The translations under genes and the position numbers were made by a program. This document shows, piece after piece, positions 1 to 5,434 of a DNA stretch of 5,434 nucleotides (positions are counted from its first letter, which is position 1; each line of letters starts with the position of its first letter). Source of the DNA: Octopus sinensis (taxonomy: Eukaryota); the NCBI RefSeq assembly GCF_006345805.1, contig NW_021829982.1, positions 1 through 5,434 of the forward strand, given 5' to 3'. The notes under the pieces were generated by a model. That model had not been told where the DNA came from. It worked only from the letters and a program-made list of their open reading frames with translations, and did no database searches.

Positions 1-46
1 TATGATCTAGAAGATATGGAAAAAAATGTAATCAAAAATGTTAATA

Positions 47-102
47 TGTGACATGGTTTGCGCGATACCTATGGTTTGCGCGATACCTGACGTGACCTTG
101 AA
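47..102 (+). repeat. Left TIR of element A, containing a perfect 18-bp tandem repeat ATGGTTTGCGCGATACCT (53-70, 71-88)
   Basis: Aligns to the reverse complement of 1267-1323: TGTGACATGG-TTTGCGCGATACcTATGG(9 nt)TACCTGAcGTGACCTTGAA versus TGTGACATGGTTTTGCGCGATACgTATGG(9 nt)TACCTGAaGTGACCTTGAA. Confidence 0.93.
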
Positions 103-464
103 ATGTACAATTATGACATTGATGGGATTAAATTATAAATCTTTTAATTAGACCGCGACTCATTCTTATCATTTAATATTTACTAAATTAGCTAAAGACT
201 CTCTCATTTTGACAAAAAATTATATTTATAGGAATTTAATTTTTAGAAATTAATTTTTTTTGGTGGAAAACCTAAATTTCTTGAATTATTTCTAGCGTGC
301 AAGTATATTTGCAGCAATGTCCTCGTACAAAGGTTATGTAAAGAATAGTTTGGAATATCAAATTTTAAAAGATGCTTTACAGGATAAATTTCCTGAATAT
401 CTTACAAAGCAAAAAAAATATAGACTAGTTAAGAAAATTGAAAATTTTACTGTAATTATGAAAG

Positions 465-489
465 GTATCATACAAATGTAAATGTATAG
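465..489 (+). other. Putative 25-nt spliceosomal intron A1
   Basis: GTATCATACAAATGTAAATGTATAG contains the in-frame TAA. Removing it and restoring one A upstream gives NFTVI(N)ERLYLK, collinear with SFILLNDCLYI in element B. Confidence 0.7.
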
Positions 490-709
490 ATTGTATCTTA
501 AATGTGCGAATTCAGATCACAAGCTAGTGATTTGTCTAGACAATGAACCCGAAATGGAGATCGTTGCTAAAAGTTTGCATGACTTCTCGCATGGAGGAGT
601 TAACAAAATTGAATATGAATGTCGACAACGATATTTCACAGTTAAAAACGAGATTATTCGAAAAGTCATTCGAAACTGTGAAATTTGTAAATTTGCGCGA
701 CCCTTAAAA

Positions 710-733
710 GTTTTAACTTTTTTTAAATCTTAG
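710..733 (+). other. Putative 24-nt intron A2 (phase 0)
   Basis: GTTTTAACTTTTTTTAAATCTTAG. Removal joins RPLK to IGDINNHVFASCPNERFQ in frame and removes the TAG stop. Element B has no such insertion here. Confidence 0.82.
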
Positions 734-870
734 ATTGGAGATATAAATAACCATGTCTTTGCATCTTGCCCAAATGAAAGATTTCAGAGATAGATCTTAT
801 AGATCTGAAAGTTTTTCTACTATAAATAAAAATTTTAAATGGATTTTACGGTCATTGACGTATATAGCAG

Positions 871-895
871 GTTAGTTTTTTTAACATTTTTATAG
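871..895 (+). other. Putative 25-nt intron A3 (phase 2)
   Basis: AG|GTTAGTTTTTTTAACATTTTTATAG|A. Removal gives IDVYSRFAFARPL exactly, matching uninterrupted IDVYSKYGFTRKL in element B. Confidence 0.88.
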
Positions 896-1266
896 ATTTG
901 CATTTGCGAGGCCGCTCTACACTAAGTCCTCAAATGAAGTTTGTGAAAACCTTAGATCATTATTTTTTTTTAAATGGTCCGTGTCAATTCTTCTTCAGTC
1001 CGATAATGGACTGAATTCAAGAATCGTGAAATGACCAATCTATGTGAGGAATTCAATATCAAACGAATTCACGGAAGGCCAAACAATCCCCGCTCACAAG
1101 GGATTGTCGAACGCTCAACCAGTCAATTACAAGAAAATGGCAAAAATGATCGACAATGATAATAAAAAGTGGCTGGAAAAATTAGAAATGCAGACTTAAA
1201 AAATAATTAACAAGTTATTATTCTTTGAAGTTTAATATTAATTACAATATTGACATTAAGTTAAGC

Positions 1267-1323
1267 TTCAAGGTCACTTCAGGTAACCGGTTGCCCATAC
1301 GTATCGCGCAAAACCATGTCACA
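1267..1323 (-). repeat. Right TIR of element A
   Basis: Inverted copy of 47-102 with one indel, two point mismatches and a diverged 9-nt block. Followed by the TSD TAATA. Confidence 0.93.
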
Positions 1324-1805
1324 TAATATCTCGAGACTTTCTAAAATTTTAAAATAAATAGTTGAAACTTTTAATGTTTTGCATTGTGTCGTATACGGGG
1401 TTTTTTAATTAAGTTTTAATAAAACTGTTATTTAGAGTTCCTCTTAACACTAGAAATTGTAATCAGAAAGTATTAAAGATCGTATTAATCATAAAATCCG
1501 AGTCAATACACTGCGGCCGCATAGGGAACAGTATCAAATTGACTTCCAACAATTAGGTTTTGGTTAAGATTGTCTTTCGAAATTGACTTTTTACGTTAGA
1601 ATATCATATCTCAAATTTTAAAAGTTTTGCCGGGTCCATTAATGAGCCGGTGACATTCAATGTTATTAGACGTTTTTAAACTTGTTTCATCAAAAAATTT
1701 GACGATTATTTAATACTTGGGTTGCACAAATTTTGCTAAACTGTTCTTCGAATTGTTGGAATCGTTCATGTTCGGCATTTTCTAAATCAATTTCTTCACC
1801 AATTT

Positions 1806-1830
1806 CTAAATTATGACCAAAAATAAATAC
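1806..1830 (-). other. Putative 25-nt intron B3 (phase 1)
   Basis: G|GTATTTATTTTTGGTCATAATTTAG|AA. Removal continues the frame PFSESR-EIGEEIDLENAEHE. No paralogue alignment is available here. Confidence 0.72.
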
Positions 1831-1911
1831 CTCTTGATTCACTAAAAGGCTATTCTGGAACTATTGCATTAAATCCTGGAATTCCCCTGAATCTGATAAA
1901 GGGAGTTTCAC

Positions 1912-1936
1912 CTATTTTTACAGAATAGTTTAAAAC
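1912..1936 (-). other. Putative 25-nt intron B2 (phase 1)
   Basis: G|GTTTTAAACTATTCTGTAAAAATAG|GT. Removal restores the integrase motif YNLSTHSSTGETPF with no other correction. Confidence 0.9.
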
Positions 1937-2330
1937 CCGTAGAAGAATGAGTAGAGAGGTTATACCAGATAACTGCATCTCCAATACAGTTAATCCACTT
2001 TTTGGTACTATCCTCAGATAACATTTTCGAGATTTTGCGCGTAATCGTTTGGTTGAAGCGCTCAATGATCCCTTGACTCGTGGATTGTTAGGCCTTCCGT
2101 GAATTTGGAGAATGTTGTATTTCCACACAAGTCAGTAAGGTAAGAATTCTTGAACTCTGTCCCATTATCTGTTTGTAGATATAGGACATGGTCCATGCTC
2201 GATAAATATATCTTGAATATTTTTGAAACCTCGAGTCCAGATTTATTTTTAGCTTTCTTGTGAATCCATATTTGCTGTATACATCAATACAAGTTAACAG
2301 CCATGAAAAAGAATCATTGGAACTCGAAAT

Positions 2331-2352
2331 CTAAAATAATGAGAAAAAGCAC
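2331..2352 (-). other. Putative 22-nt intron B1
   Basis: AG|GTGCTTTTTCTCATTATTTTAG|A. Removal (plus one restored T) gives DLKRF(S)SSNDSFSW, collinear with uninterrupted DLKVFSTINKNFKW in element A. Confidence 0.75.
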
Positions 2353-3027
2353 CTTTTAAGATCGATTAAATCCATTTGAAACCTTTCATTTGGTTATTAG
2401 CAAAAACGTGAATTCTGTATCATGGTCTTTAAAGGTGCAGAAAAGCGGCAAATGTCACATTTGATAACAACATCACGGACGATTTCACGTTTAATAAAAA
2501 AATCTTTGCCTACACAATCTCTCAAGTTCATTTTGACAGGAATGGCTAACTTCGTGAATTCCTTGACAAGTCTTCTATTTTTTCATGATCATCAGAAGTA
2601 ATAACTAATTTGTGACTCCCGTTTTCAACACGATATAAAGGCAGTCATTTAATAGTATAAAAGATTTTGACTTGGTCAAAAACCTTCTTTCCTGATATCT
2701 ATTCTTGTCTTTACATCGATCCCTTGGAGAATCGACTTGATTTGATCATATTCATTGTTATTTTTTATATACTTCTTTTGTTTTGGAAAACCAAACGTGA
2801 ACAATCCATAGTATATAGCGTGCGTAATATTAATAAAAATTTGATGAAAAAAAGATATTAACAAATTAATAAATATATTATAATATTTTAAAGTGCCATT
2901 TGTGTCATTATATTCAATAATTTCGAAAAATTTATAAAAATTACAATATGACTAATCAATAATGTGCGCTCGGGGCGTAGTGCGCGTTGTGCATGCGACA
3001 TATTATTACAAATATTACTTATGCTAC

Positions 3028-3756
3028 CTAACCTGAGAATAAATTAATGATAAATTAAAAGTTAGATTAATTAAAATTTTCAATTTACTGGTCTTGGGCC
3101 TCCCTGAACAGCACCATCATCTTTCGTGATCCTCTTGCTATTATGTGTCCTTCCTCAGAGTATTCGTTTTCTGCCACCTCATCATGTCTCCTCTTCATCG
3201 AGTTAGCTCCCCTTTGGTGAGTGTTCCACACTGCATAATCTTTGTTGAGAATCAATGCTTTAGTCATTACGTCTTCAAACCATGTTTATATTCTACGAAC
3301 ATTCCTTCCAACGTCTTCTTTAATGCAATCGTTTGGATGTACGCCAGAACACTGTCTTTAATGCCAATCAAATCCATGTATATTTTAAAATACTTGGAGG
3401 TGATCGCATCCCAGGTAATGACAATCGGAAGTATTTTGACTTTGGCTTTGTAATGATTCTAATTCACTTGCCAGGATATCATATTTATGAAGTTTTTCAA
3501 CTTCAACTGCTTTTAAATTATCCACACACGTCACTCCAATCTCTATTAGCCATATGTGGTTTAATTTTTTGTCGTATAGGAAAATGTCCGGCTTGTTATA
3601 TTGAATTTTTGACTCGGTAGGGATAGTAGTGTCAACTCGTAATTCAGCACGATCATTGGTAATTACGCTTTGGATAGAGTGAGTCTTCAACCTTTTTGAT
3701 TTTTTGAATCCAATTTTCTGCATAGGTGCATGTGTATGCATTTAACAATTTCGTTG
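3028..3756 (-). mobile_element. 5'-truncated non-LTR retrotransposon with restriction-like endonuclease (RLE)
   Basis: Flanked by the direct repeat TACTTATGCTAC at 3016-3027 and 3757-3768. Homology starts abruptly inside the RHN motif at the TSD, the typical product of target-primed reverse transcription with 5' truncation. Confidence 0.92.
3085..3756 (-). pseudogene. C-terminal RLE (PD-(D/E)xK) endonuclease domain of a non-LTR retrotransposon ORF
   Basis: NEIVKCIHMHLC...YNKPDIFLYDKK (KPD at 3594-3586)...LIEIGVT...EKLHKYDILASEL, then after a frameshift AKVKILPIVITWD...AYIQTIALKKTLE. TAA at 3269-3267 overlaps the ATG of the 60-aa ORF 3085-3267, which is probably the frameshifted C-terminal tail. 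Confidence 0.85.
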
Positions 3757-4024
3757 TACTTATGCTACAATAATATTTTATTAGTAAGGTTTATTTAGTA
3801 CATAAGAAAATTGAAAAAATATTTTAATTTAATTTTTAAGGTTCTTTGTAATAGTATTTAAAGCACGTTCCTAACGTATTTAAATGCAAGCAAACTACAA
3901 AAACTCTAGATATTGATTAGAATAAGAATATGATTACTAGGGCGATTTTTTAACATAAAATAAAAATTAAACTTTATTAATCAAAAAACTAAAAAAATTA
4001 CCCCACAAATTTAACTTTATAACT

Positions 4025-4147
4025 TTAATAAAAGGACTAAAGAAAAAAGGTCATTGGCAGATAGTCAGAGTATTGCCTCTGACTATGGCTATGGATATTC
4101 GTTCGGTTAAATACCGGTGCTCACACGGGTCGCCGGTAACCCTTTCT
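4025..4147. mobile_element. 123-bp GC-rich structured insertion with 11-bp TSD (SINE-like or retroposed RNA)
   Basis: ACTTTATAACT is repeated at 4014-4024 and 4148-4158. Perfect 10-bp stem ATAGTCAGAG/CTCTGACTAT (4061-4086) and a second stem TACCGGTG/CGCCGGTA (4112-4138). T-rich 3' end on the - strand. Confidence 0.72.
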
Positions 4148-4189
4148 ACTTTATAACTAAACAATAAATATACTAAAACTGCTTGTTAC

Positions 4190-4797
4190 ACATACAATAC
4201 TTTTCTTAATTGTCTTGTTAAAAATTTCGGTTGGATCATAGAAAACTCTTTATTTAAGAGAAAGTTCTTTCAACCAAGCAAGAGGTCGGCTGAAAATTCG
4301 TGAGTTATAAATACTCGGCAGGAGATATGTGTAAATTAGTTATGTTGAATATGTTCGAAATATCATTTAACTATTTTGGCAGGTAAAACTTGAACATAAA
4401 ATTTTACCTGATTTCATAAGATTTGCGGCATCAGAAATTAACAAAAGGAAATTTCCCCTTTGAAACAAATTATTTCGAAGTACCTCGTCGACTATCTGAG
4501 TAATAATGTTCTTGTTAGGAGCAAATTCTATTGGCGTATTAGATATGTTGTTTCAAGAGAATTTAACAATTAAACATAACAGAAACATAACATATCTTTG
4601 TTTTATCGGTAATTGCAAAAACTTTTTATTCCTACAAAATAAGGAAGATTTTCAAATTTTTGTTGATGTATTATTTTTTGATCAATTCTGATTTGATCGA
4701 CACAGCTTCTAGCTTTCGATAGTGGGGATACTAGCATTAAGCCATGGCATAGATAGAGCCATCATCCTTTTTTGCATACAACTATAAACGAATATTT
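4190..4797 (-). pseudogene. hAT-like transposase remnant (catalytic-domain pieces and C-terminal dimerisation motif)
   Basis: FAITD.T (~4600-4620); NIITQIVDEVLRNN..QRGNFLLLISDAA...SGKIL...FY (~4385-4510); HISPAEYL*LTNFQPTSCLVERTFS*IKSFL*SNRNF (~4220-4332). Many stops, and the central part is missing. Confidence 0.75.
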
Positions 4798-4799
4798 CT

Positions 4800-5185
4800 T
4801 GATGTTCTAACAAATCCGTTAAATATGCAAGTTTGTGCTTATTGAAATGCGTTGGAAATTTTTATAACTCCCAGGTCCATTGACTGACCAAGCCTGTAGT
4901 ATTTCGCGGTATAACATGATTTCAATATTAGAAAAATTTTCTGGTATGTAATGGGAAGGACAGTTATCCAAAATAAGCAAAATTTGTTTTCTCTAATTTT
5001 AGATTCAAATCAAAGTTTATTAGCCAATCTATGAAGATTTTCCCAGTCATCTAAGCAGGCTGGGAGGTATAAAATTTGTGGCCAATTTGAGAATTGGCCA
5101 TTTTGCAGAGTTTTTTCAATTTTGCAGCGGTAAATTGTTACAAATGGCAAATTTGAGAGGTGGCCAATTTGAGAGGGTTGAGTGG
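4800..5185 (-). mobile_element. pogo/Tigger (Tc1/mariner superfamily) fragment nested in the hAT element
   Basis: A*MTGKIFIDWL...ILLILDNCPSH (LDNCPSH at 4971-4951)...NIEI..PRNTTGLVQSMDLGVIK, which are DDE_1 motifs. The end reads TA|CCACTCAACCCTCTCAAATTGGCCA on the - strand. The second TIR is not found. Confidence 0.85.
5078..5185 (-). repeat. pogo terminal region with repeated putative transposase-binding sites (TGGCCAATTTGAGA)
   Basis: Copies at 5079-5092, 5095-5104 (partial), 5145-5160 and 5161-5176. The last two form a 16-bp tandem with one mismatch. All are in the same orientation. Confidence 0.8.
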
Positions 5186-5187
5186 TA

Positions 5188-5322
5188 TTTACAAAATGAC
5201 TGACGAAAATTTACAAAATGTCTTTTCTCACATTAAATATTACACAACAAAGACAACAATATAATACACTATCCTCAAAGATAATCTTTTACTATGGTTT
5301 CGATTTTGCTACCTTAGGCGTA
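5188..5322 (-). pseudogene. N-terminal zinc-finger-like fragment of the hAT-like transposase
   Basis: (ACG)PKVAKSK...FEDSVLYCCLCCVIFNVRK..HFVN. A CxxC lies ~130 bp inside the 5' TIR, in the same orientation as the rest of the remnant. Confidence 0.5.
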
Positions 5323-5434
5323 TTAAACAAAAATCTTAGTGGTAAAATGTATTATTAATAGTTGTTTTAATAATTTAACTTTTTAACTTAGTTCGCCCTA
5401 ATGATTACATAACTATACAAAATTGTTTTAAACA

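Follow-up and report, generated by a model that had tools for sequence, protein, structure and literature searches.

How do very short spliceosomal introns come to lie in transposase genes, and how long do they stay there? The question is raised by one whole contig of 5,434 nucleotides (NW_021829982.1, positions 1 to 5,434 of the forward strand, in the 2.7-Gb Octopus sinensis assembly GCF_006345805.1), hereafter the window, which holds a nest of three Ginger-type elements: A lies inside X, and X inside B. A first-pass annotation of these letters had proposed that the transposases of A and B, although paralogous, share no intron position, and had taken this as a sign of rapid intron gain or loss. 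The explanation that we consider probable is an early gain of 22-34-nt spliceosomal introns at splice-like sites, followed by their retention, within a large Ginger-type radiation in an animal with tiny introns, probably a dicyemid.

Introns of transposases A and B

Transposases A and B align motif for motif, as the annotation had noticed, and are homologous integrase-type proteins with an H2C2 zinc finger and an rve core (Pfam Integrase_H2C2 and rve are matched in both), 54-55% identical over the core. Introns were placed with a spliced aligner written for this analysis, seeded only with seven outside proteins and run on complete copies; their coordinates are collected in Table 1. A1, A2, A3, B1 and B2 are GT-AG inserts. 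The absence of A1-A3 from B, and of B1 from A, is borne out also against full-length A, which lacks B2 as well. The lengths of A1-A3 in the window (25, 24 and 25 nt) carry single-base homopolymer errors; the usual genomic lengths are 26, 23 and 26 nt, and those of B1 and B2 are 22 and 25 nt in most copies. Because none of these majority lengths is a multiple of three, the inserts are not coding indels, a reading that the annotation had left open.

The claim that A and B share no position fails once longer copies are compared. Complete copies of A have seven introns, of which the aligner called all but the fifth, which was read by eye, and complete copies of B have five; one of these is common: in A (L022 and others) and in B (L002-L005) a phase-0 intron lies at the identical codon boundary in the C-terminal domain, GD[KM]^VR[VI]KKDFGTNPSL, as GDK^VRVKKDFGTNPSL (24 nt) in A and GDM^VRIKKDFGTNPSL (27 nt) in B. 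It falls in the part lost by both window copies, A through a deletion of ~570 bp and B where the nested element X cuts it at 1655. A and B also each carry two phase-1 introns in a linker, and these may be homologous; because the linker cannot be aligned, its introns (one or two per A or B family, all phase 1) are excluded from all counts below. The last linker intron of B, which would be required to preserve the reading frame, ends in TG in all seven B copies that hold the site (including L002-L005, L008 and L009), and could be a GT-TG intron, be replaced by a GT-AG intron of 62 nt, or represent a defect that has become fixed in this family.

Intron sites across the families

Genome searches scored the best candidates only, and element counts are lower bounds. 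Models from 80 stretches fetched around matches were clustered into families, of which 28 with good models were kept and fragmentary ones dropped; single-copy calls off the sites given here were treated as artefacts of damaged copies. The 28 families contain 73 introns at 17 alignable sites, 71 of them GT-AG and 2 GC-AG, and all but one are 22-30 nt long. Intron GC content is 21%, against 34% in exons. Seven of the 73 are in frame and free of stops, which is seven of the 25 whose length is a multiple of three. Removing the introns restores colinearity with outside proteins, and none of 29 sequences gives new core calls afterwards. Bounded by GT or GC and AG, conserved in position and restoring the frame when removed, the inserts have the appearance of tiny U2-type introns. 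Several, in L103, L138, L140 and L013, are 24 nt, in frame and stop-free, so that gene callers read through them and the intron would be hidden.

Intron positions, mapped on a transposase tree as the annotation had proposed, follow that tree across the 28 families. Site 364.0, the one common to A and B, is present in all 14 A and B families whose representative spans it. In the A clade 121.0 occurs in all five families, 47.2 and 402.0 in four, 166.2 in three, and 180.1 and 234.0 in two; in the B clade 146.2 occurs in all ten families, 279.1 in nine by call and in the tenth by eye, and 237.1 in B4 only. Elsewhere we find 284.2 in lineage C, 46.1 and 136.2 in D, 75.0, 115.0, 157.0 and 238.2 in E, and 136.2 in F1 and F2, while G1, F3 and H1 have no core intron. 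Family X, modelled later, has 115.0, 157.0 and 238.2 and a call at 77.0. The sets of different lineages do not overlap except at 136.2, which is held by D (L153, L157) and F (L162, L163), lineages 30-35% identical; the site reads (A)G| in 22 of 23 families that lack the intron and is a candidate for parallel gain. The two GC-AG introns are that of B4 at the B1 position (L097:~2440-2480 (+), and other B4 copies) and the 238.2 intron of E4.

Within clades these positions are stable. Sister families keep them even with silent sites close to saturation, fourfold-degenerate sites being 26-50% identical in 10 of 11 pairs (80% in the other, B7/B8), and introns at the same site vary in length and sequence. 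The exons are under purifying selection, codon position 2 being more conserved than position 3 in all 11 family pairs. The A copies, aligned in 33 rows (26 with distinct left flanks and 7 without a detected end), show no precise loss at any of the seven A introns; for each intron, 1-18 rows do not include both flanks. In the A+B clade nine of ten gains fall on internal branches, which make up 26% of tree length (P 4e-5, or 0.002 with terminal branches halved); six fall on the three deepest branches, one is confined to a single family, and there is one precise loss, of 47.2 in A5. An early burst of gain followed by stasis is thus likely for this clade.

The annotation had also remarked that several introns sit at proto-splice-like sites (AG|GT or G|GT), and this holds statistically. 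The exon ends in G at 14 of the 17 sites, where 3.0 are expected, and in AG at 10, where 0.9 are expected. At the same sites in families without the intron, G stands at -1 in 48% of cases and AG in 21%, where random sites matched for phase give 18% and 5%; none of 100,000 random site sets scored as high, and site 364.0 reads |GT in 12 of 13 intron-lacking families. Because the bias persists where the intron is absent, it is not merely the product of later polishing, and it argues that new introns were fixed where one junction was already half made. The pattern fits short insertions that duplicate or reuse an AG or a GT. We saw no introner-like likeness between sites: 2408 between-site pairs have a mean score of 7.1 against 6.95 in shuffles and a best score of 15 against 14.3, and the mild excess of pairs scoring at least 11 (90 against 63) fits shared T-rich ends. 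Since old introns would have shed such likeness, an extinct introner may still lie behind them.

Relatives, host and competing histories

The nearest named relatives of these transposases are proteins of the microsporidia Dictyocoela muelleri, D. roeselum and Nosema granulosis (among them KAG0418124.1, KAG0432323.1 and the P0001 and P0005 records; an organism name stood on 2 of 20 neighbours looked up), and outside protein P0001 is 54% identical to A, as close to it as B is. In trees built with 98 and then with 24 outside proteins, the families of this genome fall in five to six places among outside proteins called as single frames, and one clade for all of them is rejected (p-AU, from the approximately unbiased test, 0.0003). 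The A+B clade (15 families, support 93/78) belongs to a larger clade, supported at 100/100, that also takes in three Dictyocoela proteins and one further protein, and C, D+G, E, F and H each cluster with different outside proteins. Outgroups that carry all the positions, as pure differential loss would predict, were not seen among these relatives, which are known as predicted proteins only; an intron-free ancestral transposase is the likely state. A homologue search with the 83-aa zinc-finger exon gave no match.

The elements lie on small contigs, and no top match falls on the chromosome-scale contigs. On one of them a transposase copy is accompanied by an RPS2 gene, which has a 26-nt intron at the place of a long one in the chromosome-scale copy and lacks three other introns of that copy. 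The protein of this small-contig gene is 61-66% identical to those of many animals (50% to one primate entry), and no myxozoan or microsporidian name occurs among its best 120 matches. Introns this small are reported only from dicyemids and myxobolids (PMC13644364, PMC6543705, PMC6736024), and the carrier is probably a dicyemid, an animal parasite with tiny introns. A microsporidian, our first guess from the transposase matches, was ruled out by animal-type genes with tiny introns and by the animal-like RPS2. The tiny-intron RPS2 gene occurs on three contigs (L131-L133) with equal match scores, which suggests that the parasite contigs include haplotypes left uncollapsed, or duplications; the numbers of copies given here are therefore not numbers of insertions.

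The early-gain history would run as follows. Each lineage likely began, or entered this genome, with an intron-free transposase gene. Insertions that are short, AT-rich and placed behind (A)G or ahead of GT would then readily become introns, perhaps because the spliceosome of this animal needs little beyond GT..AG at 22-30 nt. Once fixed, introns would persist, as we propose, because cut-and-paste transposition has no RNA step that erases them and because an intron that breaks the frame must retain its splice sites. The likely order is 364.0 on the A+B stem, 47.2, 121.0 and 402.0 on the A stem and 146.2 and 279.1 on the B stem, after which subclades of A probably added 166.2 and 180.1/234.0, B4 alone gained 237.1, and A5 lost 47.2. 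Of the earlier proposal that introns were gained or lost independently after A and B split, gain of the differing introns remains the best reading, and one intron likely predates the split.

The strongest competitor, which we judge unlikely, is differential loss: an intron-rich ancestral Ginger gene shed introns lineage by lineage through cDNA recombination, and microsporidia later acquired intron-free versions. Such an ancestor must have held at least 17 introns in ~420 codons, followed by near-complete, non-overlapping loss in six lineages and total loss in every outside relative, and the rows of A copies show no precise loss. In its favour, loss prevails in plant CACTA transposases (PMC4158355), and one precise loss is seen here, in A5. 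Common ancestry would account for 364.0 in A and B and for 136.2 in D and F, but no family mixes A-stem and B-stem sites. Retroelement fragments, common on these contigs, and the three introns missing from the organism's RPS2 also speak for loss.

Rapid ongoing turnover, for instance by an active introner, was the annotation's reading; we regard it as improbable and, on the observations above, largely refuted. Turnover would suit the difference between A and B, 54% identical as proteins, at six of the seven sites that can be aligned, the crowding of 17 sites into one small gene, and a subfamily-specific tiny intron in pogo elements on the same contigs (3 of 15 models). Against it, only one of the ten gains is family-specific, copies show no presence/absence polymorphism, introns at different sites are about as alike as shuffles, and the youngest has its seven genomic matches all in its own family. 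That the inserts are unspliced, being chance GT-AG stretches in dead elements or assembly noise, is scarcely credible, despite many single-base indels in the assembly, the TG end of the last B intron and a case for splicing read from sequence. As many as 14 families have the insert at one codon position and in one phase while its length and sequence vary, GT/GC..AG is kept in all 73, the exons are under purifying selection, and the tiny 26-nt intron of RPS2, a housekeeping gene of these contigs, falls at a long-intron position of its chromosome-scale copy.

Several points weigh against early gain and retention. Support is modest for the A+B node (93/78) and the A-clade node (90/66). The intron-free outgroup depends on genes called without a break on short contigs, for example 458 aa on 1475 bp, and on the scarcity of introns in microsporidia, and some of the outside relatives, all predicted proteins, may derive from spliced RNA. 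The presence of site 136.2 in two distant lineages must be explained by parallel gain or by an ancient origin followed by many losses. The site preference is for G at -1 only, G at +1 not being enriched (5 of 17 against 3.3 expected), and tandem duplication of flanking exon leaves no signal (2.92 against 2.96 and 2.97 against 3.02 matches per 10 nt) in a test of low power for old introns. The genome search for an intron source that the annotation had proposed gave no donor for the youngest intron, that of B4, whose seven matches all lie inside family B4. Intron number and GC content at third codon positions (GC3) are uncorrelated (rho 0.08, p 0.70), so that recent arrival of the intron-free families is unsupported, and GC3 was dropped as an arrival clock. 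The burst test was devised after the tree had been seen, uses single damaged copies, counts each site as one gain and omits five single-copy calls that we take for artefacts or for known introns called out of place (A2 17.0, A3 407.2, B9 281.2, B10 263.0 and 267.1). Splicing, finally, is deduced from the DNA.

Because microsporidia are intron-poor (PMC10815200), exchange transposons with animals in both directions (PMC4202319) and infect dicyemids (PMC8262960), transfer between them, in one direction or the other, is plausible. We suggest, tentatively, that several intron-free lineages may have crossed from microsporidia, as hyperparasites of dicyemids, into the tiny-intron animal, each being intronised in an early burst through selection for transposase expression or escape from silencing. 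Selection for introns in transposon RNA, as an escape from the silencing of intron-free transcripts, is an idea from other organisms. If such transfer took place, the A+B clade would have acquired up to 6 new introns over ~0.2 substitutions per site, and the lineages would be replicated natural experiments in the birth of minimal introns, including a parallel gain at 136.2.

Element anatomy and comparison with known systems

A and B are Ginger-type DNA transposons. They have terminal inverted repeats (TIRs) of ~55 bp in A and ~50 bp in B, within the ~40-270 bp of the Ginger superfamily, with TGT..ACA ends, and a transposase, with its own start codon, made up of an H2C2 zinc finger and an integrase-type DDE core, which is the anatomy of that superfamily. 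The full A element of ~1.85 kb has a single gene and no reverse transcriptase/RNase H or long terminal repeats, and an exact 5-bp AT-rich target-site duplication (TSD) flanks all 16 A copies with both ends; the complete B copy L003 is 2071 bp, with ends of ~50 bp and a 5-bp duplication. Under a strict rule, 9 of 29 family representatives (A4, B, B2, B6, D1, D2, E4, F2 and H1) have a TIR pair with a 5-bp TSD, 2 have a TIR pair without a TSD and 18 have no detected TIR pair. Window frameshifts are mostly single-base homopolymer errors, as judged from other genomic copies, and none of the several in transposase A is common to other copies. Family X is a third Ginger-type family, of the E clade, 64-66% identical to E1, E2 and E4, with 26-28-nt introns at E-clade sites (also in L188).

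Table 1. Positions of the nested elements and their introns in the 5,434-nucleotide window
Feature	Position	Strand	Remarks
Family X, last codons	1..46	+	split by the A insertion; 46/46 bases equal to X copies L186 and L187; frame continues across A
Left TSD of A	42..46	+	TAATA
Element A	47..1323	+	internally deleted Ginger-type DNA transposon copy, 1277 of ~1850 bp; TIRs ~55 bp, TGTGACA..TGTCACA
Transposase A, coding region to deletion junction	317..1193	+	zinc finger and DDE core; ATG at 317
Intron A1	465..489	+	site 47.2; in families A, A2, A3 and A4; absent from A5 and all B families
Intron A2	710..733	+	site 121.0; in all five A-clade families
Intron A3	871..895	+	site 166.2; in A, A2 and A3
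Deletion junction in A (~570 bp)	1190..1193	+	removed A introns 4-7, including the one common with B
Right TSD of A	1324..1328	+	TAATA
Family X, 3' end and right TIR	1329..1655	+	X interrupts B; 27 matches
Element B	1656..3000	-	left TIR at 3000 (TGTCGCATG.., ~50 bp); transposase ATG at 2809; 3' part absent from the window
Probable fourth intron of B	1691..1716	-	phase 1, linker; ends TG, not AG; missing from the first-pass list
Intron B3	1806..1830	-	phase 1, linker; not alignable to A linker introns; read from sequence
Intron B2	1912..1936	-	site 279.1; in nine of the ten B-clade families by call, in the tenth by eye; absent from full-length A
Intron B1	2331..2352	-	site 146.2; in all ten B-clade families; GC-AG in B4

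Other elements lie around the nest. At 3267-3741 (-) we read the 3' fragment of a non-LTR (long terminal repeat) retrotransposon with a restriction-like endonuclease motif and no Pfam match; it may resemble microsporidian retroelements, and if so it would be a second element class in common with microsporidia. A degenerate pogo/Tigger-type transposase occupies ~4200-5200 (-), with the motifs DNCPSH..QPMDLGVI read from frames. Pogo elements on these contigs, surveyed with a profile that covers only 346 positions, mostly lack introns: of 15 models, 12 gave no intron call and three (L087, L153 and L167) have one intron of 24-27 nt at a common position. The stretch 3757-4498 recurs in the flank of B copy L002, and the window and contig C10288 would seem to be in part one locus, or else a duplication. 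Several near-identical loci (L010-L016 and L018-L020) have a B-family copy into which a family C element is nested, with a single intron of 24 nt that keeps the frame.

By target site A and B appear nearest to Ginger2/Tdd; no sequence named as Ginger2 was among those returned by the homologue searches. The transposase profile aligns to Ty3 integrase over positions 80-408, and its C-terminal domain, for which a Pfam search gave no match, has an SPY/HPY motif; the domain may be GPY/F-like if, as we assume, this motif corresponds to that of GPY/F. According to Bao, Kapitonov and Jurka (2010, PMC2836005), Ginger2 has neither the GPY/F nor the YPYY motif, whereas the C-terminal domain here aligns through the end of Ty3 integrase. 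The same source gives Ginger2/Tdd TIRs of ~50 bp, TGT..ACA ends, an AT-rich target and an H2C2 and DDE core, all as here, and a 5-bp TSD in TDD-4 and TDD-5; its metazoan Ginger2 elements differ in having 4-bp TSDs and lengths of 2.7-6.7 kb, against 1.6-2.1 kb here, and the elements described here carry up to 7 introns of 22-34 nt, unlike Ginger2/Tdd. Ginger1 (PMC2836005) resembles them in its 1-4 introns at family-specific and common positions, with occasional GC-AG and GT-TG ends, but its TSDs are 4 bp long (CCGG/CCGT) and it carries an OTU or Ulp1 domain at the C terminus, neither of which is found here, and the passages on it report no tiny introns and no map of gain and loss. GingerRoot (PMC6839031), as outlined there, has a 6-bp GC-rich TSD, mostly TA..TA ends and a length of 4-13 kb, and our elements do not fit that description. 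The microsporidian proteins annotated as 'Gag-Pol' or 'Pro-Pol' (D. muelleri, D. roeselum, N. granulosis) are integrase-like, with the same length and domain order, but are called as single open frames and are known from protein records alone.

Intron histories offer three further comparisons. CACTA transposases (PMC4158355) likewise vary in exon number among paralogues and have clade-level intron sets, but loss from a four-exon ancestor prevails there, whereas gain from an intron-free state fits better here. Domesticated transposon genes of placental mammals (PMC3369469) share an intron-free ancestor, a burst of gain on the stem branch and conserved positions, and differ in being single-copy host genes with long introns rather than multicopy elements with TSDs and introns of 22-34 nt. 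The ultra-short introns of dicyemids and myxobolids (PMC6543705, PMC6736024, PMC13644364) are alike in length (median 27 nt in Dicyema sp.) and in their reduced signals, GTa..AG, but are described as shrunken old introns at conserved positions, whereas those reported here are apparently new. The literature searches, over the text that they reached, turned up no report of introns in the transposons of dicyemids, nor of Ginger elements that microsporidia share.

It is thus already known that Ginger transposases can have introns, that transposase families differ in theirs, that genes derived from transposons have gained introns in bursts and that dicyemid introns are tiny; what is new, relative to the literature searched, is new tiny introns in transposons that are still multicopy, replicated across lineages with close outgroups. 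The annotation's suggestion that these elements form a useful natural system for the origin of tiny introns is supported. With at least 17 apparently new intron sites in one small transposase gene, spread over several independent lineages with single-ORF (open reading frame) outgroups, they make up a polarised data set that bears on whether introns land at proto-splice sites (here they do, as judged from intron-lacking sisters), on whether gains come in bursts after entry into an intron-rich genome, and on how little sequence an intron needs. The pattern also points to an exchange of transposons between microsporidia and a mesozoan parasite.

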